This document shows, piece by piece, positions 23,983 through 38,982 of a stretch of DNA of 44,546 nucleotides. Source of the DNA: an uncultured Armatimonadales bacterium (GTDB lineage Bacteria; Armatimonadota; Armatimonadia; Armatimonadales; Capsulimonadaceae); contig CAXTWM010000001.1 in NCBI GenBank assembly GCA_964247915.1, positions 1-44,546 on the forward strand. The letters run 5' to 3'. Within the stretch, counting starts at the first letter, position 1, and each line of letters starts with the position of its first letter. Position numbers and translations under genes: made by a program. The notes beneath the pieces are model-generated. The model had not been told where the DNA came from. It worked only from the letters and a program-made list of their open reading frames with translations, and ran no database searches.

Positions 23983-26900
23983 TCAAGCGGCCAGTGCGGG
24001 CAGCGAGCGCCCGTCGGGTTTCGCCATCAGGGACAGGAACGCCCCGACCACCTGCGGGTCGAAGTGGGTCCCGGCCAGGCCGTGGATGTGGTCGAGGACG
24101 CGCCCCCGATCCCACGCTTTGCGGTAGGGGCGGTCCGAGCGCAGCGCGTCCCACACGTCCACGACCGCGAACAGGCGGGCGGCGAGCGGGATCTGCTCCC
24201 CCCGCAGGCACTGCGGGTAGCCGGTGCCGTCCCACTTCTCGTGGTGGCAGAAGGGGATGTCCAGCGAGGGCCGCAGGAAGGCGACCGGCTCCAATATCTC
24301 GTGCGCCAGGGACGGGTGGCGGCGCATCATCTCCCACTCGCCGTCGTCGAGCGGGCCGGGCTTGAGCAGGACGCGGTCGGGGACGCCCATTTTGCCGATG
24401 TCGTGGAGCAGCGCCCCGCGACGCACATGGACCAGCTCCTCTCCGTCCAGGCCGACGGCGCATGCCAGCCGCAGGGTCAGCTCGGTCACGCGCCGGGAGT
24501 GGCCCTCCGTCTCGTGGTCGCGGCAGTCCAGGGCGCGCGACCAGCCCTCGATCGTCGCGTCATAAGCCTCCGTCAGCTCGGCGTTGAGCCTGCGGATCTG
24601 TTCTTCGGCCCGCCTGCGGTCCGTGACATCCTGGAAGGTCCCCAGGATGCCCATGACACGCCCCTGGGAGTCGTGCAGGGGGACCTTGTTTGTTTCCAGC
24701 CACTTCTCGCGGCCGTCGGCCTGCCGCTGTGTTTCCAGGAGGTGCAGCCGGGGCGTGTTTTCCCGCATCACGTCGCGGTCTATGGCCCGGTAGAACTCGG
24801 CCTCCTCCGTCGTCCACGGCAGATCGAAATCCGTCTTGCCGACGATCTCGTCGGGGTGCGCCAGGCCCGCCCCGCGCGCGAAGTTCTGGTTGCAGCCCAG
24901 ATAGACGGAGTCCTGGTCCTTCCAGAAGATGAACTGCGGGATGTTGTCCATGATCAGCCGGCGCATGTCGTTGGTCGCCCGGACCTGCTCTTCCGCGCGC
25001 AGCCGCTCGGTCACGTCGCGGATCAGCACCTGCCCCGCCGGCCTGCCCTGGTAGGTGATGCTCGTGCTGACGGCCTCAACATCTATCACCCGCCCGTCCA
25101 GCCGGACGTACTGCTGGAGCGCTAGGGCGCTCGGCTTCCCCTCCTGCTGGCTGAGGCGCGCGCGCTCCTTCGTCAGCGCGTGGCAGTCCGGGTGGACGAG
25201 ATCGAAGATCAGCCGCCCCAGCAGGTCTTCGGGGCCGGCGGCGGCGAACAGAGTCACCGCCGCCGCATTGACGTAGACGATCCGGTCGTCGCTGTAGACG
25301 GCGATGGCCTCGGGGGAGTGCTCCACCAGCGAGCGGTAGCGCTGCTCACTCTCGGCCAGCGACGCCTGCTGCCGCCGGCTCTCGGTGATGTCCCGCCCCG
25401 TCCCGGTCAGGCCGATGACCCGCCCGCCCGAGTCCCGCAGGGGGACGCCCTGGAAGTGATGGGGGACGGGGGTGTCCCCGTTGCCGAGGAGGCTCCCCTC
25501 GACCTCGGCGTATCCCTCCTGGAACGCCTGCGCGATGGCCTGGGCGATTCGGCCCTGGTCCGATGCGGGGAACAGCTCGATGCTGGGCTTGTCCTGTAGC
25601 TGCGCGGCGGAAAGGCCGGTCATGGTCTCCATCTTCCGATTCCACTGCACCAGGCGGCCGCGCAGGTCCAGCCGGAAGATGATGTCCGGCACGGTCTCCA
25701 TGATGTTCTCGCGCTCCTGGAGCGCGTGGGCGAGCTGCGCCTGCGTCTGCTGCCGCTCGGCGACCTCCGCCGTCAGCGCCCCGTTCGCCTCGGCGAGCGC
25801 CGCCGTCCTCTCCCGGACGCGCTCTTCCAGCTCTTCGTGCGCCCGGCGCAGTTCTTCGTGCGCCCGGCGCAGCGCCTCCTCCGCCTCTTTGCGGGCGGTG
25901 ATGTCCTCGACGGAGCCTTCGTAGAAGAGCGGCCTGCCCTCGGCGTCGCGGACGAGGTGGGCGTTCTCGCGCACGAGGATCTTCTGTCCGTCGCACCGCT
26001 CCCAGGCCGCTTCCAGGCCGCGCAGTTCGCCCGCCGCTTCCAGACGGGCTTTGAAGTCGGCGCGCTCATAGGTGGCTTCCGTTCCGTCGGCCTCCAGGTT
26101 GCGCGCCGCCAGTTGCTCCAGGCTGTCATAGCCGAGCATTTCGAGAAGGGCGGGGTTGGCGAGCAGGATGCGCCCGTCCGGCGTGGTGCGGTAGATGCCG
26201 TGCGTGGCGTTCTCGAAGAGCAGGCGGTACTGCTCCTCCCGGTCGCGCAGGGTCTTCTCGGCCTGCTTGCGCTCGCTGATGTCGCGCAGGGTGGCGGTGA
26301 AGAGAGGCGGCCCGCCTTCCAGTCGGATCGTGGTAATCGCCAGTTCGACGGGCAGTTCTGAGCCATCCGCCCGCACCGCGCTGATCTCGATGCGCTTGTC
26401 CAGGACAGGCCCGTCGCCCGTCGCCATGTAATGAGCCAGCCCGCGCCGGTGTGCTCCCCGCAAAGCAGGGGGGACGATCAGGTCTGCCAGGTCGCGCCCC
26501 AGAACTTCGTCCCGGCTGTAGCCGAAGGTCGCTTCCGAGGAAGGGTTCCATTCCAGGACTCGGCCTTGACTGTCAATCGTAATGACGCAGTCCAGTGCGG
26601 AGTGGAGGATGGCAGTCTTGAGTGCCTCGCCGTCGCGCCGTTCCCGTTCCGCCCTCTCGCGTTCGGCGAGCTGGCGGCGCAGCTCCAGGCGGGCGATGAC
26701 CTGGCGGGACAGTGCTCCCAGCGCGCGCTCCTGCTCCGCCGTCAGGGTGCGCGCCACGCGGTCAATGACGCACAGCGTCCCCAGCGCCTGGCCGCTGGCG
26801 GTGAGCAGCGGGGCGCCCGCATAGAACCGGATGTCCGGCTCGCCCGTGACGAGCGGGTTGTCGGCGAACCGCCGATCGGCCTGGGCATCGGGGACCGTGA

Positions 26901-27159
26901 AGACGCCGGACCCGTGGATCGCGTGCGCGCAGAACGCCTGGTCGCGCGGCGTCTCGGCGGCGTCCAGCCCGACCTTCGACTTGAACCACTGGCGGTCGGC
27001 GTCAATCAGACTGATGAGGGCGATGGGCGTCCCGCAGATGTGGGCGGCGAGGCCGGTGAAATCGTCGAAGTCGGCTTCGGCGGCGGTGTCCAGTATCTGA
27101 TAACCGCGCAGCGCCCGGAGCCGGGCGTCTTCATTATCGGGCAGAGGGGCTTGCATCAT
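23983..27159 (-). CDS. Multidomain sensor: GAF, about five PAS domains, HD-GYP phosphodiesterase domain
   Basis: N-terminal [21 protein letters not shown] with a GAF domain, then repeated PAS cores. The C-terminus has HSRRV...[12 protein letters not shown]...[11 protein letters not shown]...[16 protein letters not shown]. The start is ATG 27159 or 27156 (alternative 27195). The track start at 27318 overlaps the divergent gene. Confidence 0.85.
25833..25872. repeat. 21-bp tandem duplication inside the sensor gene, encoding RRAHEEL twice
   Basis: cttcgtgcgcccggcgcag occurs at 25833-25851 and again at 25854-25872, a 21-nt period. The protein reads ...[22 protein letters not shown]... Confidence 0.9.
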
Positions 27160-27260
27160 GTCTCGACGTTCTAACGGCAGGCAATCTTTGCCCATATCTT
27201 CGGCAGATACCGCCCGAACATTCAGGTCCCTTTTCGGCACACCTATGACACGCCCGCGCG

Positions 27261-27290
27261 TTGACACCGGCCCCGCCAATCGGCTATACT
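27261..27290 (+). promoter_or_regulatory. Candidate sigma70-type promoter TTGACA-N18-TATACT for the acyl-CoA dehydrogenase gene
   Basis: TTGACA at 27261-27266, an 18-nt spacer, then TATACT at 27285-27290. It lies 27 nt upstream of the ATG at 27317, with GAAAGGGA in between. Confidence 0.45.
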
Positions 27291-27316
27291 GGGGGGCAGA
27301 AAGGGACCACCCACTC

Positions 27317-28483
27317 ATGGTTCTGACCTGGGATCAAGACCCACGGGAGCTGTACCCCGGCATCCAGATCGGCGACGCCGTCCAGCGGCTCGTCGGCGGG
27401 GAGCTGACCGTCCACACCGAGGAGGCCCGGCCCAACGAGGGCGAGTTCCCCGAGGCCAACATCCGCCGCCTGGCCGCGCGGGGGCTTCTGGGCATGAAGA
27501 CGCCGCCGCAGTACGGCGGGCTGGGGCTGGATACGCTCAACGTCACCTACGCCGTCGAGCAGATCGCCCGGATCGCGCCCGCGACCGCCTTCGTCCTCCT
27601 GCTGCACACCCTCACCGCCAACCGCATCGCCGGGGCGGGGACCGAGGCGCAGAAGCGCCGCTACCTCCCGCAAATCTCGTGCGAGGCCCTGGGCGCGTCG
27701 GCCTGGTCCGAGAGCGGAGTCGGGGCGGACAAGAGCGTCCTCAACACCAAAGCCTACCGGGAGGACGGTATCTGGCACCTGAGCGGCCAGAAGGCGTTCT
27801 GCACCGGCGCGGGCCACGCGGCCGTCTACATGGTAATGACGGACACGACCGAAGGCAAAGGCTTCTTCCTGGTTCCGGCCGACAACCCCGGCCTGCGGAT
27901 CGGCGAGCCGATGGACTCGATGGGGTTGCAGGGGACGCACAGCGGCGTAGTCGGGCTGGACGATGCCCTGGTGCCCGACGCGGACCGGGTGGGGGAGCCG
28001 GGCCGCATCGGCCCGATCATCAACCTGGACATGCAATCCGGCCTGCACTCGGGCATCGTCGCCACGGGCATCGCCCTGGGGACGTTCGGGCGGCTGCTGG
28101 ACATCGTCAAGGCCAACAACTCCTTTGAAAAGTATGAGAGCGTCCGCGTCCGCGTCTCGCAGCTCGCGTCCCTGCTCAGTGTGATGCGGACCCACGTCTA
28201 CGCGCTGGCGCAGATGGCCTCGCTGCCCGACGACTCGCGCCCGCCGGTCGAGGCGGCGACCATGACCGCCAAGCTGTTCCTGTCGGAGAGCGCCTTGCAG
28301 ATGACCACGGACGCCATCGCCATCGCGGGCAAGGCGGGGTATCTGCGCGAGAACGGCCTGGAGCGCCTGCACCGGGACGCCCTGGGCATCGTCATCGCCG
28401 CCCCCATCAACGGGCAGGTGCTCGGCTCCATCGGCGAGTCGCTCCGCCAGGCAGATCGGTCCTCGCACTTGTACAAGGTGTAG
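27317..28483 (+). CDS. Acyl-CoA dehydrogenase family protein
   Basis: 388 aa from the ATG at 27317. ACAD-type N-terminal, middle and C-terminal pattern ([49 protein letters not shown]). Confidence 0.85.
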
Positions 28484-33019: not shown

Positions 33020-34270
33020 ATGCCCAAACCTATCCGCCTCATGCACTTCGGCGACGTCCACTTCGGCGTCGAGAACTATGGCCGGTTCGACCCGCAGACC
33101 GGCCTGCCCTCCCGGCTCGTGGACTTCCGCAACGCCCTGTCGGAAGCCATCACCATTGCACTGGAGGCCGAGGTCGAGCTGGCCGTCTTCGCCGGGGATG
33201 CCTACAAAACGCGCGACCCGAACCAGACCCACCAGCGCGAGTTCGCCCAGTGCCTCGCTCGGCTGACGCGGGCGGGCGTACCCGTCGTCATGCTGGCGGG
33301 AAACCACGACATCCCGAACACGAAAGGCCGGGCCAACGCCATCGAGATCTTTGGCGAACTGGCGGGGGAGCGGCTGCGCGTTTTCGACCACCCGGACACA
33401 GCGATCTTGGAGACCAAGAACGGGGCGCGCGTCCAGATCGCCGCCATGCCGTACCTCATCAAGAGCCTCGTCCTGTCCCGCGAGGAGAACAAAGACCAGG
33501 GCGTCCAGGGGACCACGCAGCTCATCGTGGACCGGTACACGGCGGGCATCAATGGCCTGGCCGCCCTGTGCGACCCCGACCTGCCGACGATCTTGATGGG
33601 GCATTTCTCGGTCGCCAACGCCAAACTCAGCGCCAACCAGGTCGGCTACCTGACCAATGAGCCGGAAGTTCCATTGTCCGTGCTGACCCAGGCGCCGTTT
33701 GATTACGTCGCCCTGGGCCACATCCACCGCTACCAGGATTTGCACAAAGGCCGGCAGCCGCCCGTCGTCTACAGCGGCAGCATCGAGCGCATTGACTTCG
33801 GGGAGCGGTCCGAGGAGAAGGGCTTTGCCCTGGTGGACCTGGCGAAAAGGGCGAGCGAGGTCAAGCACGTCCGGGTCAAGACGCGGCCCTTCGTCGAGAT
33901 CGAGGTGGACGCGACCGAGGCGGGCGACGACCCGACTGAGACGATCTTAGCGGCCATCAAGAAGCAGCCCATCGAGGACGCCATCGTCAAGATGGCCTAC
34001 AAGATCAAGTCCGAGCAGCAGGCGGCCCTGCGCGAGACCGACATCCGCGCCGCCCTGAACCCCAGCTTCCTGACCGTCTCCATTCATAAAGAGGTCGTCC
34101 GCGACACCGATGCCGTCCGCTCCAAGCTGCTCACCGAAACGCTCGACCCCCTGGGCGCCCTCGCCATCTACTGCGAGACGCGGGAAACGCTGCGCCCGCG
34201 TAAGGAAGAACTCGTCGCCCGCGCCGAGCCGCTGCTGCGCGAACTCGAAGCCGAAGAGGCGCTGAAATAA
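33020..34270 (+). CDS. sbcD: Mre11/SbcD-family nuclease (exonuclease SbcCD subunit D)
   Basis: Calcineurin-like phosphoesterase motifs HFGDVHFG, GDAYKTRDP, LAGNHD, MGHFSV and ALGHIH. AGGAGA lies upstream of the ATG at 33020. Confidence 0.85.
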   Translation: MPKPIRLMHFGDVHFGVENYGRFDPQTGLPSRLVDFRNALSEAITIALEAEVELAVFAGDAYKTRDPNQTHQREFAQCLARLTRAGVPVVMLAGNHDIPNTKGRANAIEIFGELAGERLRVFDHPDTAILETKNGARVQIAAMPYLIKSLVLSREENKDQGVQGTTQLIVDRYTAGINGLAALCDPDLPTILMGHFSVANAKLSANQVGYLTNEPEVPLSVLTQAPFDYVALGHIHRYQDLHKGRQPPVVYSGSIERIDFGERSEEKGFALVDLAKRASEVKHVRVKTRPFVEIEVDATEAGDDPTETILAAIKKQPIEDAIVKMAYKIKSEQQAALRETDIRAALNPSFLTVSIHKEVVRDTDAVRSKLLTETLDPLGALAIYCETRETLRPRKEELVARAEPLLRELEAEEALK

Positions 34271-34272
34271 AA

Positions 34273-34298
34273 AGGGGCGCGGCCCCTGCCGCGCCCCT
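34273..34298. terminator. Bidirectional terminator between sbcD and leuD
   Basis: AGGGGCGCGG-cccctg-CCGCGCCCCT gives a 10-bp stem. AATAAAA lies on one side and CTCTTGCTT on the other. Confidence 0.7.
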
Positions 34299-34318: not shown

Positions 34319-34933
34319 TTATGCTGCCGCCGCGCCGCACGCCCACGCGGGCCGCTTCGCTTCATACGCCGTGATGTCCGGCTCGTGTTGCAAGGTCAGT
34401 CCGATGTCGTCCAGGCCGTTCAGCAGGCAGTAGCGGCGGAACGAGTCCACCTCGAACGGCATTGAGAAGCCTTGAGTGTCCGACACAGTCAGGTTCTCTA
34501 GGTCCACCGTCATCTGGTAGCCCGGCGTCTTCGCCCGCGCCAAGAGCATCGTGATGGTTTCCTCCGGCAGCGTGACCGGCAGCATCCCGTTCTTGAAGCA
34601 GTTGTTGTAAAAGATGTCCGCATAGGACGGCGCCAGGATCGCCCGGAACCCATAGTCCTCCAGCGCCCACGGCGCGTGCTCGCGCGACGACCCGCAGCCG
34701 AAGTTCTTGCCGGTGATGAGAATCGTCGCGCCCTGATACTGCGGCTGGTTCAGCTCAAACTCTGGGTTCGTCGTCTCGCCGTCGCCCTCGTAGCGCCAGT
34801 CGAAGAACAGGAACCGCCCAAAGCCCGTGCGCTCGATGCGCTTCAGGAACTGCTTCGGGATGATCTGGTCGGTGTCCGCGTTGACCCGGTCCAGCGGGGC
34901 CGCGAGGCCGGTCAATTTCGTGAATGGTTCCAT
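34319..34933 (-). CDS. leuD: 3-isopropylmalate dehydratase small subunit
   Basis: From the ATG at 34933: [33 protein letters not shown]...[17 protein letters not shown]. Confidence 0.9.
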
Positions 34934-34943
34934 GTTACGACGG

Positions 34944-35564
34944 TTACTCCTGTGAAAATATGTTGCCCACCGGCACGAGGAGGCCGGGGAAGACTCGGGA
35001 CGCGGCAGTGTCACCCTGCCCGTAAACATTCGCACTGTCGCCTTGCTCCGCCGAGAGGCGCATGACCTCAACCGTCTGGTCGCCGGACCGGACGATCCAG
35101 ACTTCCCGCACGTCCACCGCCCGATAGTCCGCGACCTTCGCGGCCAGCACGGAGGCCGTGTCGGACGGCGAGACGATCTCCACCACTAGCTCCGGCGCGG
35201 GCGACAGCGGGGCGTACTCGTCCGAAGGCGCATTCTGCCCCAAGCGCTCACGGCTGATGAACAGCAGGTCCGGCTGGCGGCTGCGGAGTGGCTGATAGGT
35301 AATCTCCACGTCGCAGGGAGCGATGACGGCCTCCCCTCGTCCCGACGCCTGCTCATAATCCTGAAAGCGGCGGAGGAGACGGCCGAGTATCCGCTGATGT
35401 CTGCGTGTCGGGCTGGGCAACAGATTGTCTCCATACAAACGATAGACCTTCCATCCGTCGAGGATGTCATAGCGAGCCATCTCCTCCGGCCCGCTGATGT
35501 ATTCCTCGTAGGTCATCGGGCGCGTGATGCCCGGAACGTCCGCTTTCGGCTCGGCAACGGCCAT
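34944..35564 (-). CDS. Uma2-family (DUF820) putative endonuclease
   Basis: [21 protein letters not shown]...RHQRILGRL...[12 protein letters not shown]...[16 protein letters not shown]. The ATG at 35564 is preceded by AAGGAGAAGG. Its GC is host-like. Confidence 0.8.
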
Positions 35565-35572
35565 CTGCCTTC

Positions 35573-35591
35573 TCCTTTCAGTTCTTCTCCC
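35573..35591. repeat. Left copy of direct repeat TCCTTTCAGTTCTTCTCCC (orphan copy of the leuC 3' end)
   Basis: The 12-bp core AGTTCTTCTCCC (35580-35591) is identical to 36746-36757. On the minus strand it reads ...GAG AAG AAC TGA (E-K-N-stop), mirroring the real leuC terminus. Confidence 0.7.
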
Positions 35592-35610: not shown

Positions 35611-36282
35611 CTACTTCAGCCCTTTGACTTCAGCCAGAATGCTTTTCGTGATGCGGGTTGACCTGTCTAATAAATCCGCGTCTACCGATCCGGCGAAGCC
35701 ATGCACTGCGGTGTTTCGGACCGGCAGCAATTGGCTCAGAATGTCGCAATCTTCCGGGTCCATAAGACCATAGGCAACGCCTTGTTTGATGATTGCCGCC
35801 GGTGCGTTGTTGATAAAGCTGGCCGGAATGCGCTCCAGCCCGATCCGAAGGCTTGCTTCTAATGCTGACCAGAGCAGGATGACCGCTGCCGGTGAGTCGC
35901 CAATGGAAGCCAGATACTTGCTGTTATTGATGCGCTCTTCGATCTTCTGGATTGGAATTGTAGGCTGCTTTGACTCGGCTGAAAGCGTCCCATTTTCGGG
36001 CGTCTCCGGGGAGTTACTAAGAACTAGTTCCAGCCTCCAACCGGGGTGGCGCTCTACGGACTTTGCTAATTCTTCTAGAGTTCGGGACCGTGCGACCTGG
36101 CCGTAAGATTGCACTTCTACAACAACGGCCTCTGCCCCATTCTTAGCTAAAAGATCGGGCTTGAAGCCCTGTAGAAACTCCGGGAGCTGTCCGGCATCGG
36201 GTTCCTCCACGACCTGATAGCCGCGCTGCCTGTACCGATGCGCTATGGCAGCGACGCGCTCCTGATGAAATGCCGTTTGCAT
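35611..36282 (-). CDS. Two-domain protein: N-terminal PD-(D/E)xK-like nuclease fold, C-terminal HEPN-like domain (Rx4H)
   Basis: The N-terminus YQVVEEPD...FKPDLLAKNGAEAVVVEVQS follows the E...PD...ExK pattern, with Q in the K position. The C-terminus is helical with LLWSALEASLR and LPVRNTAVHGF, which fits the HEPN R-x4-6-H signature. 223 aa, low GC. Confidence 0.5.
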   Translation of the reverse strand: MQTAFHQERVAAIAHRYRQRGYQVVEEPDAGQLPEFLQGFKPDLLAKNGAEAVVVEVQSYGQVARSRTLEELAKSVERHPGWRLELVLSNSPETPENGTLSAESKQPTIPIQKIEERINNSKYLASIGDSPAAVILLWSALEASLRIGLERIPASFINNAPAAIIKQGVAYGLMDPEDCDILSQLLPVRNTAVHGFAGSVDADLLDRSTRITKSILAEVKGLK

Positions 36283-36319: not shown

Positions 36320-36706
36320 CTATTCCCACTGGACGAGGACGTGCAGGAAGTCGCTTTTTGATCGGAAGGCAGATGCCAGCACGGAAAAACTAATCTCGAT
36401 CACCGCTTCAGGACTCAGAACATCAATTTTCCGGCAGGTGACACTGACCACCTGCTTGTCATCAGCGTAGACAAGCCCCTTTAACTGATCCAGGACCGGC
36501 TTAATGATGTTATCCACATCCATGAGGTCTGATGTGTAGAAGTATGTGAGTATCACGCCGACGGGAGCAGTGAGCGGGGGGTTGTTTCCAGGCCAGCGAT
36601 TAACAGCAGCCCGTCTCAGATCCCGTTTATAGTTCTCGATGCGGCTTCTGTTCTGCGTTTGCACCGTGCAAGGAACCCCAAGACGTACAAACTCAAATGT
36701 CAGCAT
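36320..36706 (-). CDS. RusA-like Holliday-junction resolvase family protein
   Basis: SDLMDVDNIIKPVLDQLKGLVYADDKQVV matches the RusA core D-x-D-N-x2-K-x3-D-x-L...DD-x-Q-V-V (E. coli RusA: [26 protein letters not shown]). The size (128 aa) and the N-terminal beta-strand pattern (FEFVRLGVP) also fit. Confidence 0.65.
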   Translation of the reverse strand: MLTFEFVRLGVPCTVQTQNRSRIENYKRDLRRAAVNRWPGNNPPLTAPVGVILTYFYTSDLMDVDNIIKPVLDQLKGLVYADDKQVVSVTCRKIDVLSPEAVIEISFSVLASAFRSKSDFLHVLVQWE

Positions 36707-36740
36707 GGTGTGGCTGCTCTATTCGCCTTGCTGCGTTGTG

Positions 36741-36757
36741 TCCTTAGTTCTTCTCCC
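36741..36757. repeat. Right copy of direct repeat TCCTTAGTTCTTCTCCC (contains the genuine leuC stop codon)
   Basis: The minus strand reads ...GAG TGG GAG AAG AAC TAA GGA. It matches 35573-35591 apart from a 2-nt indel. Confidence 0.7.
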
Positions 36758-38150
36758 ACTCCCGGATGTCCACGAGATGACCCTCGATGGCGGCGGCGGC
36801 GGCCATCTGGGGGCTAACGAGGTGGGTGCGCCCGCCCTTGCCCTGGCGGCCCTCAAAGTTGCGGTTGGAGGTGGACGCGCAGCGCTCACCGGGCTGCAAG
36901 ATGTCCGGGTTCATGCCCAGGCACATGGAGCAGCCGGCCTCGCGCCAGTCAAAGCCCGCGTCTTTGAAGACCCGGTCCAGGCCCTCGGCCTCGGCCTGGA
37001 GCTTGACCTGGACGGAGCCGGGGACGACCAGGGCGCGCAGGCCCGCGCGGACCGTGTGGCCCTTCAGGACGGACGCGGCGGCGCGCAGGTCCTCGATGCG
37101 CCCATTCGTACAGGAGCCGATGAAGACGGTATCGAGTTCGATCCCGCGAATCGGGACGCCCGCGTCCAGCCCCATGTACTCCAAAGCGCGCTCGGCGGCC
37201 CGGCGGTCGGCGGGGTCGGCGTAGTCGTCGGGGGAGGGGACCGCCGCCGTGATCGGGACGACCATGCCGGGGCTGGTGCCCCACGAGACGTGCGGGGCGA
37301 TCTCGCTCGCGTCCAACTCGACCACGGTGTCATAGGACGCGCCTGCGTCGGTCGGCAGTTCGCGCCAGGCGGCGACGGCCTCCTCCCAGGCATCGCCCGC
37401 CGGGGCGGACGGCTTGCCCTGGATGTAGGCGAACGTCTTCTCGTCCGGGGCAATCATGCCCGCCCGCGCGCCCGCCTCGATGCTCATGTTGCAGACCGTC
37501 ATCCGGCCCTCCATCGAGAGCGACCGGATGGCTTCGCCGGTGTATTCCACGACATAGCCCGTGGCGCCGTCGGTTCCGATCTTGCCGATGATGGCGAGGA
37601 CCATGTCTTTGGCCGTCACCCCCAGGCCGAGCGACCCGTTGACGCGGATCTCCATCGTCCTGGGCCGCGACTGCGGCAGGCACTGGGTCGCCAGGACGTG
37701 CTCCACCTCGCTCGTCCCGATGCCGAAGGCCAGCGCGCCGAACGCGCCGTGCGTGCTGGTGTGGCTGTCGCCGCACACGATGGTCATGCCGGGCTGGGTC
37801 AGGCCGAGTTCCGGGCCGATGACGTGGACAATGCCCTGGCGCTGGGAATGGATGTCGTAGAGCGTGACACCGAACTCGCGGCAGTTCTCCGACAGCGCCT
37901 CCATCTGCTTTTTGGAGATCTGGTCCACGATGGGCAGCGAGCGGTCCGTCGTCGGGACGTTGTGGTCCATCGTGGCGACGGTCAGGTCGGGCCGGCGCAC
38001 CTTGCGCCCGGTCAGCCGCAGGCCCTCGAACGCCTGCGGCGAGGTCACCTCATGGACCAGGTGCAGGTCCACATACAGCAGTGCGGGCTGGCCCGCCTCT
38101 TCGCCGACGACGTGGGCGTCCCAGATCTTCTCGAACATTGTTTTGGGCAT
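36744..38150 (-). CDS. leuC: 3-isopropylmalate dehydratase large subunit
   Basis: Aconitase-family motifs [25 protein letters not shown] and CSMCLGMN. 468 aa. Confidence 0.95.
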
Positions 38151-38163
38151 GAAATCTATCTCC

Positions 38164-38982
38164 TCAGAAAGTCAGCGTCTGGTCAACGCGCATCACGGTC
38201 ATCTGCGCCTTTGACCCGTTCCTCTTCAGGGCGTCGCCGAACTCGGCGGGCGTCCCCGTCAGAATGGGGAAGGTGCCGTAGTGCATGGGGATGACGACGC
38301 GCGGGCCGACGGTCTTCACGGCGTCGGCGGCGCGGACCGGCCCCATCGTGTAGTGGTCGCCGATGCAGCACAGCATGACGTCTATCTTGTGCGCCCTGGG
38401 GATCAGCGCCATGTCGGCGAACTCATCCGTGTCGCCCGTGTCATAGATCGTCGGACCGCCCGCGACCGTGATGACAAACCCGCCGGGGTTGCCGCCGTTG
38501 TGCGGGTTCGTGTCCGCACTGCCGGGAGGGGGCGAGACCGCCGATGAGTGGACGGCGGGGACGAACAGCACCTTGACCTCGCCGCTGAGCAAGGACAATT
38601 CGCCGCCGAAGTTCCCCTGCGTGTCCATGCCCGCCTGCGCCTTCGGGTAGCCGCCGTAGGCGACTAGGGCGTCGGCGAGGTCCCCCGTCGCGACCAGCTT
38701 GGCCCCGGTCTTGTTGGCGATGGCGACCGAGTCGCCGACGTGATCAAAATGGCCGTGCGTGATCAGAATGAGGTCGGCCCGTGTGATCGCGGCGAGGTCT
38801 GAGGCCCCGTTCTTGTTGGCCGGGTTGGTGATCCAGGGGTCCAGCAGGACGACCTTGCCGGAGGGCGTCGTGATCTTGAAGGCCGAGTGGCCGTACCAGG
38901 TGAGCTGAGTCGGAGCGGCCTGGACGGCGGAGGCAGCCAGCAGGGACAGCAGCAGGGTGAAAGCAAGGAAACGTGCGCGCAT
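38164..38982 (-). CDS. Metallo-beta-lactamase-fold hydrolase with signal peptide
   Basis: From the ATG at 38982: [22 protein letters not shown], then WYGHSAFKI...[13 protein letters not shown]. The track ORF extends further upstream without support. Confidence 0.8.

Follow-up and report, generated by a model that had tools for sequence, protein, structure and literature searches.

We analyzed a stretch of 44,546 nucleotides (nt), hereafter the window, from an uncultured Armatimonadales bacterium of the family Capsulimonadaceae (GenBank assembly GCA_964247915.1, contig CAXTWM010000001.1). The window contains a unit of five packed, co-directional genes in the order leuC, rusA, fusion gene, uma2 and leuD, separated by gaps of 37, 37, 46 (10 from an alternative TTG start) and 13 nt. 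The third of these, which we call the fusion gene, is the subject of this study. It has an ATG start codon with AGGAG 9 nt upstream and is predicted to encode a protein 223 amino acids (aa) long, with a domain that resembles the Holliday junction resolvase Hjc at the N-terminus and a HEPN ribonuclease (RNase) domain at the C-terminus. A first-pass annotation, made by a model from the DNA letters, had proposed a fusion of this kind, and translation of sub-ranges recovered in place the open reading frame (ORF) and all of the peptides that it quoted. The gene just upstream encodes a RusA-family Holliday junction resolvase. Many toxin-antitoxin, abortive-infection and CRISPR-accessory systems use HEPN RNases as effectors, and how these enzymes are switched on is a central question. 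Coupling of a HEPN RNase to a Holliday junction resolvase is, as far as the sources that we searched go, an undescribed variant.

The partner protein, which is 128 aa long, matched Pfam PF05866 with 51.8 bits (cut-off 22.8, E 1.6e-13) and also matched PHROG RusA families. Its AlphaFold2 (AF2) model had a predicted local distance difference test score (pLDDT) of 87, and the top seven PDB matches were all E. coli RusA (1q8r/2h8e/2h8c), with Foldseek E-values of 1e-6 to 3e-5 and template modelling (TM) scores of 0.65-0.79. The gene previously noted as RusA-like is a true rusA by both Pfam and fold. Among 22 relatives, residues D63, N66, K69, D82 and D83 are invariant and D65 is nearly so; the motifs D-(V/I)-D-N-I-x-K-P and Y-x-D-D are invariant from Armatimonadota to Alphaproteobacteria. 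We take these residues to be the counterparts of D70/D72/K76/D91 of E. coli RusA, in line with the PDB entries titled 'RusA D70N'. RusA looks catalytically intact from these motifs.

We found rusA immediately upstream of the fusion gene in all 27 loci that could be assessed, meaning those with the upstream region on the contig. These loci were sampled opportunistically and are not a census of the roughly 2,650 clusters of the family. Whether a RusA-like gene is always upstream of homologues had been raised by the first-pass annotation, and at these loci it always is. They include the window and three Capsulimonadaceae-type contigs with the same leuC-leuD arrangement (L001, L002, L008), a set of cyanobacterial-type contigs (L004-7), Nostoc linckia NIES-25 (L011), a metagenome-assembled genome (MAG) of Poribacteria (L012), three further metagenome contexts (L013, L014/15, L052/53), and the plasmids pTi_CFBP2177 of A. 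tumefaciens (L016), AZO_p4 of Azospirillum lipoferum (L017) and pT136b of Rhizobium sp. T136 (L049). An unbiased scan of metagenomes with a degenerate DNA pattern for PGWRFELVV gave 28 loci, of which 19 contained true family members; rusA was upstream in 15 of the 15 that could be assessed and 4 more end at a contig edge. The stop codon of rusA and the start codon of the fusion gene usually overlap by 1-4 nt (TAATG, TGATG, ATGA) in most phyla, and in the clade of the window the two genes are separated by a 37-nt spacer with a ribosome-binding site. Pairwise distances of RusA and of the fusion protein correlate with r = 0.92 across 18 loci. We conclude that rusA and the fusion gene form an obligate, usually translationally coupled two-gene operon with rusA first. 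At the metagenome locus L037 (320-726), the rusA upstream of the fusion gene is split into two overlapping ORFs by a frameshift or an assembly error.

A co-directional, tightly coupled pair of small genes is the generic layout of toxin-antitoxin systems. One reading of the locus is a plain addiction module arranged like HepT-MntA, in which the HEPN RNase would be the toxin and the RusA-fold protein a proteic antitoxin that neutralizes it by binding. A small upstream gene followed by a co-directional downstream toxin gene with overlaps of 1-4 nt is the classic form of such modules, HepT-like HEPN proteins are proven toxins (PMC3710099), and the pair in the window interrupts an essential biosynthetic operon and is lower in guanine plus cytosine (GC) content. 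However, the Asp/Lys catalytic set conserved in RusA would serve no purpose in a pure antitoxin. We also looked for a 'Rosetta stone' protein fused to RusA and found none among nine over-length (>260 aa) family representatives and P0231 (303 aa), which carry unrelated C-terminal extensions (sigma-54 activator, helix-turn-helix). On balance, we regard a plain addiction module as quite improbable.

The C-terminal half of the fusion protein is a HEPN domain. Residues 111-221 are all-helical in the AF2 model, and the top 16 PDB matches found with Foldseek were all HEPN/HepT proteins (including 2hsb, 4nqf, 7bxo, 6m6w, 1o3u, 1wol, 1wwp, 7ae6 and 5yep), with TM scores, normalized to the target, of 0.5-0.71 and the highest, 0.71, for 2hsb. 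Pfam scans of 146 homologues, which are diverse representatives that share only about 30% identity with the protein from the window, matched HepT-like in 30, HEPN_RiboL-PSP in 16, DUF4145 in 12 and HEPN in 6. Some homologues are named 'YutE (UPF0331/DUF86 family)' by the Joint Genome Institute. The protein from the window itself had no match to the HEPN clan or to PF13643 (DUF4145) in the Pfam scan and matched the NCBIfam HepT_toxin equivalog weakly (11.7 bits against a cut-off of 60, E 0.17). The first-pass annotation had proposed a HEPN domain and had likened one of its helices to DUF4145-type HEPN; the HEPN assignment holds, and the domain is nearer to the HepT/DUF86 clade than to DUF4145.

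The same annotation had pointed to RNTAVH as a match to the HEPN catalytic signature. R189 is kept in 143 of the 146 homologues, H194 in 142, G195 in 144 and N190 in 123; upstream of these, E142 is kept in all 146 and R146 in 140. Because R189 and H194 are near-invariant across such diverse representatives, the R-x4-H match is not due to chance. The HEPN site in the window (E...R...R-N-x3-H-G) is fully intact, and the RNase motif (97-98% for R189 and H194) is the most conserved feature of the family, above positions 6 and 58 of the nuclease domain.

A search of PDB with the single fusion protein sequence gave no match and one with the family profile gave weak Hjc and HEPN matches, so we used fold comparison and profile-profile methods. 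Residues 4-119 matched Pfam PF18743 (AHJR-like) with 94.3 bits (cut-off 26.1, E 5.1e-27). This model matched all 146 homologues and Pfam Hjc matched 42 of them. In the AF2 model, the N-terminal half has a helix (residues 4-19), three strands (23-26, 44-47, 52-59), a helix (67-77) and a strand (82-89), and Foldseek aligned it to the Hjc structures 4tkd, 1ob9, 2eo0 and 2wiz with probabilities of 0.99-1.0 and modest TM scores of 0.40-0.45. Foldseek E-values of 1e-3 to 5e-2 for the two halves are modest but consistent, and the profile evidence supports them. The profile of the 146 homologues aligned to Sulfolobus (Sso) Hjc with an hhalign probability of 88%, hmmsearch also aligned the two, and both placed D43, E56 and Q58 opposite D42, E55 and K57 of Hjc. 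Thus, the restriction-endonuclease fold predicted earlier was borne out by Pfam, Foldseek and hhalign, and the domain belongs specifically to the Hjc-like AHJR-like family.

The nuclease site of this copy is unusual. In the family, the consensus is E6...D43...E56-x-K58, with the full E-D-E-K set in 58 of 146 homologues and E-D-E-R in 17. Position 58, where the first-pass annotation had correctly read glutamine in place of the expected lysine (EVQ), is K in 102, R in 28 and Q in 4; K is thus present in 70% and K or R in most of the family. The acid on helix 1 at position 6 is E in 97 homologues (66%) and H in the protein from the window. The resulting combination, H6-D43-E56-Q58, occurs in 2 of the 146, and the catalytic D...(D/E)-x-K triad is incomplete, with D43 and E56 present and Q at position 58. 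The previous choice of E26 or E27 as the first catalytic glutamate is not supported: these positions are poorly conserved (E27 in 52 of 146), and the family carries its conserved helix-1 acid at position 6. This family E6 could not be equated with E12 of Hjc, which hhalign sets opposite a hydrophobic column. Q58 is a peculiarity of the clade to which the protein belongs, and the substitutions make catalytic competence of the site doubtful. Membership in the PD-(D/E)xK fold stands despite Q58; BglII has Q at the equivalent lysine position (D84/E93/Q95).

The two domains are joined by a linker that is disordered in the AF2 model (pLDDT below 50 at residues 91-106). The model of the whole protein has a mean pLDDT of 80 and a moderate predicted TM score of 0.51, as it does not define how the two domains are oriented to each other. 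Within the clade, both domains are under purifying selection, with proportions of nonsynonymous differences (pN) of 0.12-0.22 and of synonymous differences (pS) of 0.55-0.93, both uncorrected and with synonymous sites saturated. The linker has a pN of 0.40-0.52, three times the domain rate.

A word-indexed search for relatives of the fusion protein returned 18, of which 16 are 63-89% identical and two about 36% identical. An exhaustive profile search of 1.8 billion representatives returned 2,652 clusters at 50% identity (E <= 1e-3), 534 of them at E <= 1e-30. Among the best 150 of the 2,652 clusters, 141 are 196-260 aa long and matched end to end. Because these are full length, the two-domain architecture of about 220 aa is old and uniform. 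Named members are mostly cyanobacterial, with many from Nostoc, Komarekiella, Chlorogloeopsis and Leptolyngbyaceae, plus a Poribacteria MAG, and tblastn found members on replicons of Agrobacterium, Rhizobium, Azospirillum and Methylobacterium. Capsulimonadaceae MAGs (Armatimonadota) contain the closest relatives, and a search for related loci gave only two such MAGs. We also considered whether the module is usually phage-borne and rejected this: tblastn with two divergent family queries against 50,697 phage genomes, a DNA-pattern search of IMG/VR and a search of PHROGs gave no match to the family. BFVD contained partial matches to the nuclease half only.

Public labels for family members are 'REase AHJR-like domain-containing protein' or 'HepT-like ribonuclease domain-containing protein', where REase denotes restriction endonuclease. 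The fusion of an AHJR-like REase with a HEPN domain ('HEPN-M', DUF86/HepT clade) is already listed in Table 1 of Anantharaman et al. 2013 (Biol Direct 8:15; PMC3710099), and the protein from the window belongs to that family. The fused architecture is therefore not new, and this protein is a new member of a catalogued family. That paper does not mention RusA in its main text or in one supplement and gives no function and no partner for the family (PMC3710099). In the literature searched we found no experimental work on the AHJR-like/HEPN family, and the term 'AHJR-like' led to one unrelated paper. No open-access paper was found that treats RusA together with HEPN in a relevant way, an absence that is no proof that the operon was never noted. 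In PADLOC-DB v2.0.0, neither the fusion protein nor RusA had any match at E <= 1. The first-pass annotation had stated that the arrangement is not known as a named system. With respect to the fusion this no longer holds, since it has been catalogued; with respect to the coupling with RusA it does, as the coupling is absent from the literature searched and from PADLOC. It is the coupling to RusA, not the fusion, that may be the new element.

Table 1. Coordinates of the fusion gene, its domains and motifs, and the surrounding features. Positions are those of the window except in the last row, where they are those of the contigs named.
Feature	Coordinates	Strand	Evidence
Fusion gene, AHJR-like REase/HEPN, 223 aa	35611..36282, stop codon included	(-)	ORF list, Pfam PF18743, homologues, AF2 model
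Hjc-like PD-(D/E)xK domain, residues 1-90	36013..36282	(-)	Pfam, AF2 model, Foldseek, conservation
E56-V-Q58, 'ExK' position with Q for K	36109..36117	(-)	Translation, alignment to E55-M-K57 of Sso Hjc
Linker, residues 91-110	35953..36012	(-)	pLDDT, pN
HEPN domain, residues 111-223, with E142, R146 and R189-N-T-A-V-H194-G195	35614..35952	(-)	Foldseek, conservation, homologue Pfam
RNTAVH, HEPN R-x4-H catalytic motif	35701..35718	(-)	Translation, conservation
rusA, RusA-family Holliday junction resolvase, 128 aa, with D63-V-D65-N-I-I-K69-P and Y80-A-D82-D83	36320..36706	(-)	Pfam, PHROG, AF2/Foldseek
leuC, 3-isopropylmalate dehydratase large subunit, first gene of unit	36744..38150	(-)	ORF; aconitase Pfam in syntenic loci
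uma2, Uma2-family (DUF820) putative endonuclease	34944..35564	(-)	Pfam PF05685 E 1.9e-26
leuD, small subunit, last gene of unit	34319..34930	(-)	ORF; LeuD Pfam in syntenic loci
Terminator-like hairpin and T-run after leuD	34273..34287	(-)	Terminator scan
HEPN-only fusion derivatives, 127-131 aa	L046 4399-4782; L047 4375-4764; L048 4401-4796		Profile alignment

In the window, the pair lies between leuC and leuD. The hairpin after leuD is the only convincing terminator-like site from leuC to leuD; the other site (36169-36157, minus strand) is inside the fusion gene. In the window and in L001, L002, L008 and L046-L048, the leu genes and the genes inserted between them are apparently transcribed together. 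The pair is found at the same leuC-leuD place in Capsulimonadaceae relatives, with saturated synonymous sites, and because of this shared place we conclude that it is vertically inherited and a long-term resident of the leuC-leuD operon. It evolves faster than its neighbors: identity to relatives is 67-71% for the fusion protein and 69-82% for RusA versus 87-91% for LeuC and 86-89% for LeuD. GC is about 0.51-0.56 over rusA and the fusion gene versus 0.63-0.72 in the flanks, and in every relative (L001, L002, L008, L046-48) the module is 10-17 points below the flanking leu genes. This low GC persists despite vertical inheritance, for which low expression or codon selection and recurrent replacement are possibilities.

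In this clade of Armatimonadota, the leuC-leuD gap is a hotspot for small nuclease and conflict genes. It holds only rusA and the fusion gene in L001 and L002, one additional Uma2 gene in the window, and two Uma2 genes plus two small ORFs with the pair in L008. In L046-48 it holds rusA, a HEPN-only gene and Uma2, with or without a SMI1_KNR4-like gene. For the Uma2 gene of the window we chose the ATG start with an AAGGAG ribosome-binding site; its product matched the PADLOC candidate PDC-S03 (E 3e-24) and phrog_16228, a PHROG of unknown function (E 4e-18). We considered Uma2 as a third component of the module and rejected this because it is absent from most loci: it is lineage-specific and missing from L001, L002 and loci outside the clade. 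A 27-nt direct repeat (35565-35591 and 36731-36757) was likewise considered as a target-site duplication or module boundary and was rejected, being absent in L001, L002 and L008. Its core is a 14-nt copy of the 3' end of leuC with the stop codon (35578-35591, GGGAGAAGAACTGA on the minus strand) that closely precedes the ribosome-binding site and start codon of uma2; this region would be expected to contain about 0.2 such 12-mers. The repeat may be a scar of Uma2 insertion or chance.

Beyond the unit, a gene at 33020-34270 on the plus strand, convergent with leuD, is predicted to encode a 416-aa calcineurin-like metallophosphoesterase. It is syntenic in all Capsulimonadaceae-type loci and probably unrelated to the module, and an SbcD/Mre11-like identity for it is a guess from an N-terminal motif. 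A 551-aa ORF antisense to leuC (36639-38294, plus strand) is a high-GC shadow ORF and not a gene, as are several others like it. A 1,111-aa multi-PAS/GAF protein ending in an HD domain (HD_5) is encoded at 23983-27318 on the minus strand, has a counterpart in the syntenic MAG locus L001, and is part of an ordinary signaling context.

In the more distant contigs L046-48, the AHJR-like domain is gone and RusA keeps all of its motifs. In alignments to the family profile, the remaining HEPN-only proteins cover just its HEPN half (E 1e-14 to 1e-17), and their R-x4-H is deleted or replaced ('LLPV----AHGD', 'LLSLSTVDTD', 'FLQEYEEVAAGK'). Sister lineages therefore form a natural 'deletion series', from the full fusion to HEPN-only proteins without R-x4-H, with RusA always kept. 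Because the HEPN-only genes are intact ORFs with a pN/pS of about 0.4 (about 0.2 for RusA, both uncorrected), these reduced partners look functional without RNase or DNase activity. Loss of the toxin motif in sister lineages with persistence of the upstream gene is in line with a toxin and its antitoxin. However, both genes would be expected to decay once a toxin is inactivated, and both are still under purifying selection.

The same relatives bear on the idea that the fusion gene is a decaying or inert relic in this genome, moving toward the reduced, motif-less state. H6 and Q58 are rare, the H-D-E-Q combination is limited to the two homologues noted above, and some relatives lack, at this very locus, the entire nuclease domain as well as the RNase motif. 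By contrast, the low pN relative to pS indicates clear purifying selection on both domains in the clade, the HEPN site is fully intact, and glutamine in place of the lysine does not preclude catalysis in some PD-(D/E)xK enzymes such as BglII. We therefore consider a relic highly improbable.

Outside the clade of the window, the pair is mostly found among housekeeping genes. On pTi_CFBP2177 its neighbors are the repair genes ligD, imuA and a gene for a Y-family polymerase. On pT136b they are a DUF6088 and AbiEii toxin pair, IS5, a gene for an ATP-binding protein and a restriction endonuclease gene. A convergent gene for an ATP-binding protein of about 650 aa is downstream in both, adjacent on pTi and past the IS5 transposase gene on pT136b.

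A recombination or repair complex is a serious rival to the conflict-type reading that we favor below. In such a complex, RusA would be the working resolvase and the Hjc-like/HEPN protein an accessory or regulatory subunit; the Hjc-like domain would target junctions, forks or R-loops, and the HEPN domain would trim RNA in RNA-DNA hybrids at stalled forks or serve mainly as a dimeric scaffold that binds RusA. Several observations are in favor of this. The catalytic motifs of RusA are invariant from Armatimonadota to Alphaproteobacteria on a fold equal to that of E. coli RusA, and both domains of the fusion come from junction- or nucleic-acid-binding folds. The pair has been retained vertically for a long time in housekeeping neighborhoods, many Nostoc genomes carry it, and on pTi it is beside ligD, imuA and a Y-family polymerase gene. 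Next to an intact RusA, selection still maintains HEPN-only partners that have lost R-x4-H (the uncorrected pN/pS of about 0.4). However, the RNase motif is the most conserved part of the family (97-98%, versus 66% for E6 and 70% for K58), and about 2,650 clusters among 1.8 billion representatives is a patchy distribution for a repair factor. The pair also evolves faster and has a lower GC than its neighbors, and its context on the Rhizobium plasmid is a defense or mobile-element island. In addition, we know of no described bacterial repair pathway with a HEPN RNase, which we counted against this possibility. Overall, we view a repair complex as possible but rather unlikely.

We favor the reading that the module is an accessory conflict-type system, either abortive-infection or toxin-antitoxin-like, that couples binding of branched DNA to cleavage of RNA. 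We put the probability of this at roughly 0.45. Hjc, RusA and HEPN proteins are obligate dimers, and HEPN dimers form a composite, metal-independent RNase site. Accordingly in structure, the fusion protein would dimerize so that its two R-x4-H motifs build such a site. Its Hjc-like domain would bind branched or duplex DNA, and the copy in the window, with H6 and Q58, would probably bind and not cut. The fusion protein would be in a complex with dimeric RusA, and because all three are obligate dimers a 2:2 complex is plausible. The two junction-nuclease folds would recognize and process branched DNA, which could be damaged forks or intermediates of phage replication or recombination, and this recognition would be coupled to HEPN cleavage of tRNA or mRNA and a shutdown of translation. 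RusA would either co-act on the DNA or keep the RNase in check. For prokaryotic HEPN domains, RNA cleavage that kills the cell or makes it dormant has been predicted, frequently within 'two-pronged' architectures (PMC3710099). We favor a conflict role because of this precedent and because the RNase site is the most conserved family feature; because the family is patchy, fast-evolving and low in GC; and because other selfish nuclease genes co-locate with it and it has decayed in some lineages. The leuC-leuD gap shared with Uma2 (PDC-S03) and SMI1_KNR4-like genes and the AbiEii, IS5 and restriction context on pT136b have a similar conflict flavor.

There are also observations that weigh against a conflict role. 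Most loci are among housekeeping genes and not in defense islands, the pTi neighbors (ligD, imuA, Y-family polymerase) are repair genes, and neither protein matches any PADLOC model. The pair is vertically inherited at one locus across a family-level clade with saturated synonymous sites. RusA retains its catalytic residues throughout, and these would be superfluous in a mere antitoxin. The partner lacks the nuclease domain and the RNase motif in L046-48, yet both genes are under purifying selection there; such selection after loss of the motif points to a role for which the RNase is dispensable. In the window, two of the four residues usual for the nuclease site are replaced. Finally, each step of the mechanism, including activity, toxicity and interaction, is a prediction drawn from related proteins.

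A broader and more speculative proposal, which we hold only tentatively, is that the pair represents a widespread unrecognized system in which a HEPN RNase is connected to two different Holliday-junction-nuclease folds. The system would be either a new class of abortive-infection or defense module, triggered by branched DNA from phage replication or recombination, or the first bacterial repair complex to couple junction resolution to RNA cleavage. In the repair version, junction resolution and RNA cleavage would act together, for example at R-loops or at transcription-replication collisions. The HEPN scaffold may double as a RusA-binding subunit, which would explain the HEPN-only partners that have no motif.

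At least four phyla carry this module, in which HEPN and a domain like a junction resolvase share one polypeptide and an intact-looking RusA is tied to them genetically. At about 1.1 kb the module is compact, and it is a candidate for reading DNA structure and answering by cutting RNA. If it is a defense or toxin-antitoxin system, it adds a new type of partner, an active resolvase, to HEPN modules; if it acts in repair, a bacterial HEPN RNase would have been put to an unusual housekeeping use. The reduction series in sister lineages provides a free genetic dissection. For annotation, members can be labeled 'RusA-associated AHJR-like/HEPN protein' instead of 'hypothetical'.

Of the systems already described, HepT-MntA (HEPN/MNT, type VII toxin-antitoxin) is similar in its HEPN fold, its R-x4-H motif and its two-gene operon layout, and the HepT structures 7bxo, 6m6w, 5yep and 7ae6 are among the best structural matches to the fusion protein. 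It differs in that the partner here is RusA and the fusion protein has an additional N-terminal nuclease-fold domain. No nucleotidyltransferase gene was found directly beside the pair in the 12 loci with Pfam or record annotation; the 15 metagenome loci were scanned with the RusA and fusion-family profiles only. The tyrosine of R-x4-H-x-Y that is AMPylated in HepT is F at position 196 and is variable in the family (F in 76, Y in 34 and L in 21 of 146). Membership in HepT-MntA was rejected on the lack of an MNT gene and of a conserved Tyr, and both points also speak against a plain addiction module.

The anticodon nucleases RloC and PrrC have a HEPN-like RNase that is switched on by DNA-related signals, through a sensor that is an ABC/Rad50-like ATPase and not a junction-nuclease fold. 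They have no homology to the fusion protein beyond the HEPN superfamily and may be a conceptual analogue only, in that a DNA state is sensed and RNA is then cut. The RloC/PrrC family is included in Table 1 of PMC3710099. HEPN abortive-infection proteins (AbiD1, AbiJ, AbiA) and the REase-HEPN fusions of restriction-modification systems (DUF4145-REase, EC042_2821) share the 'two-pronged' logic, in which a HEPN RNase is combined with a module that senses DNA or phage or that cuts DNA, and AbiD1 is functionally linked to a phage Holliday junction resolvase (PMC3710099). The fusion protein differs from these in both its HEPN and its REase subfamily, it has no restriction-modification or methylase neighbor, and it is not in PADLOC.

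The N-terminal domain has the fold and motif order of Hjc. In contrast to Hjc, it is a bacterial domain of about 90 aa fused to HEPN, its helix-1 glutamate is in a different register from E12 of Hjc, and the copy in the window has Q for K. The RusA of E. coli and lambdoid prophages shares with the partner its fold, its Pfam and PHROG families and the D-x-D-N...K...D-D motif, whereas the partner described here is chromosomal or plasmid-borne, is found in a non-phage context and is obligatorily coupled to the HEPN fusion.

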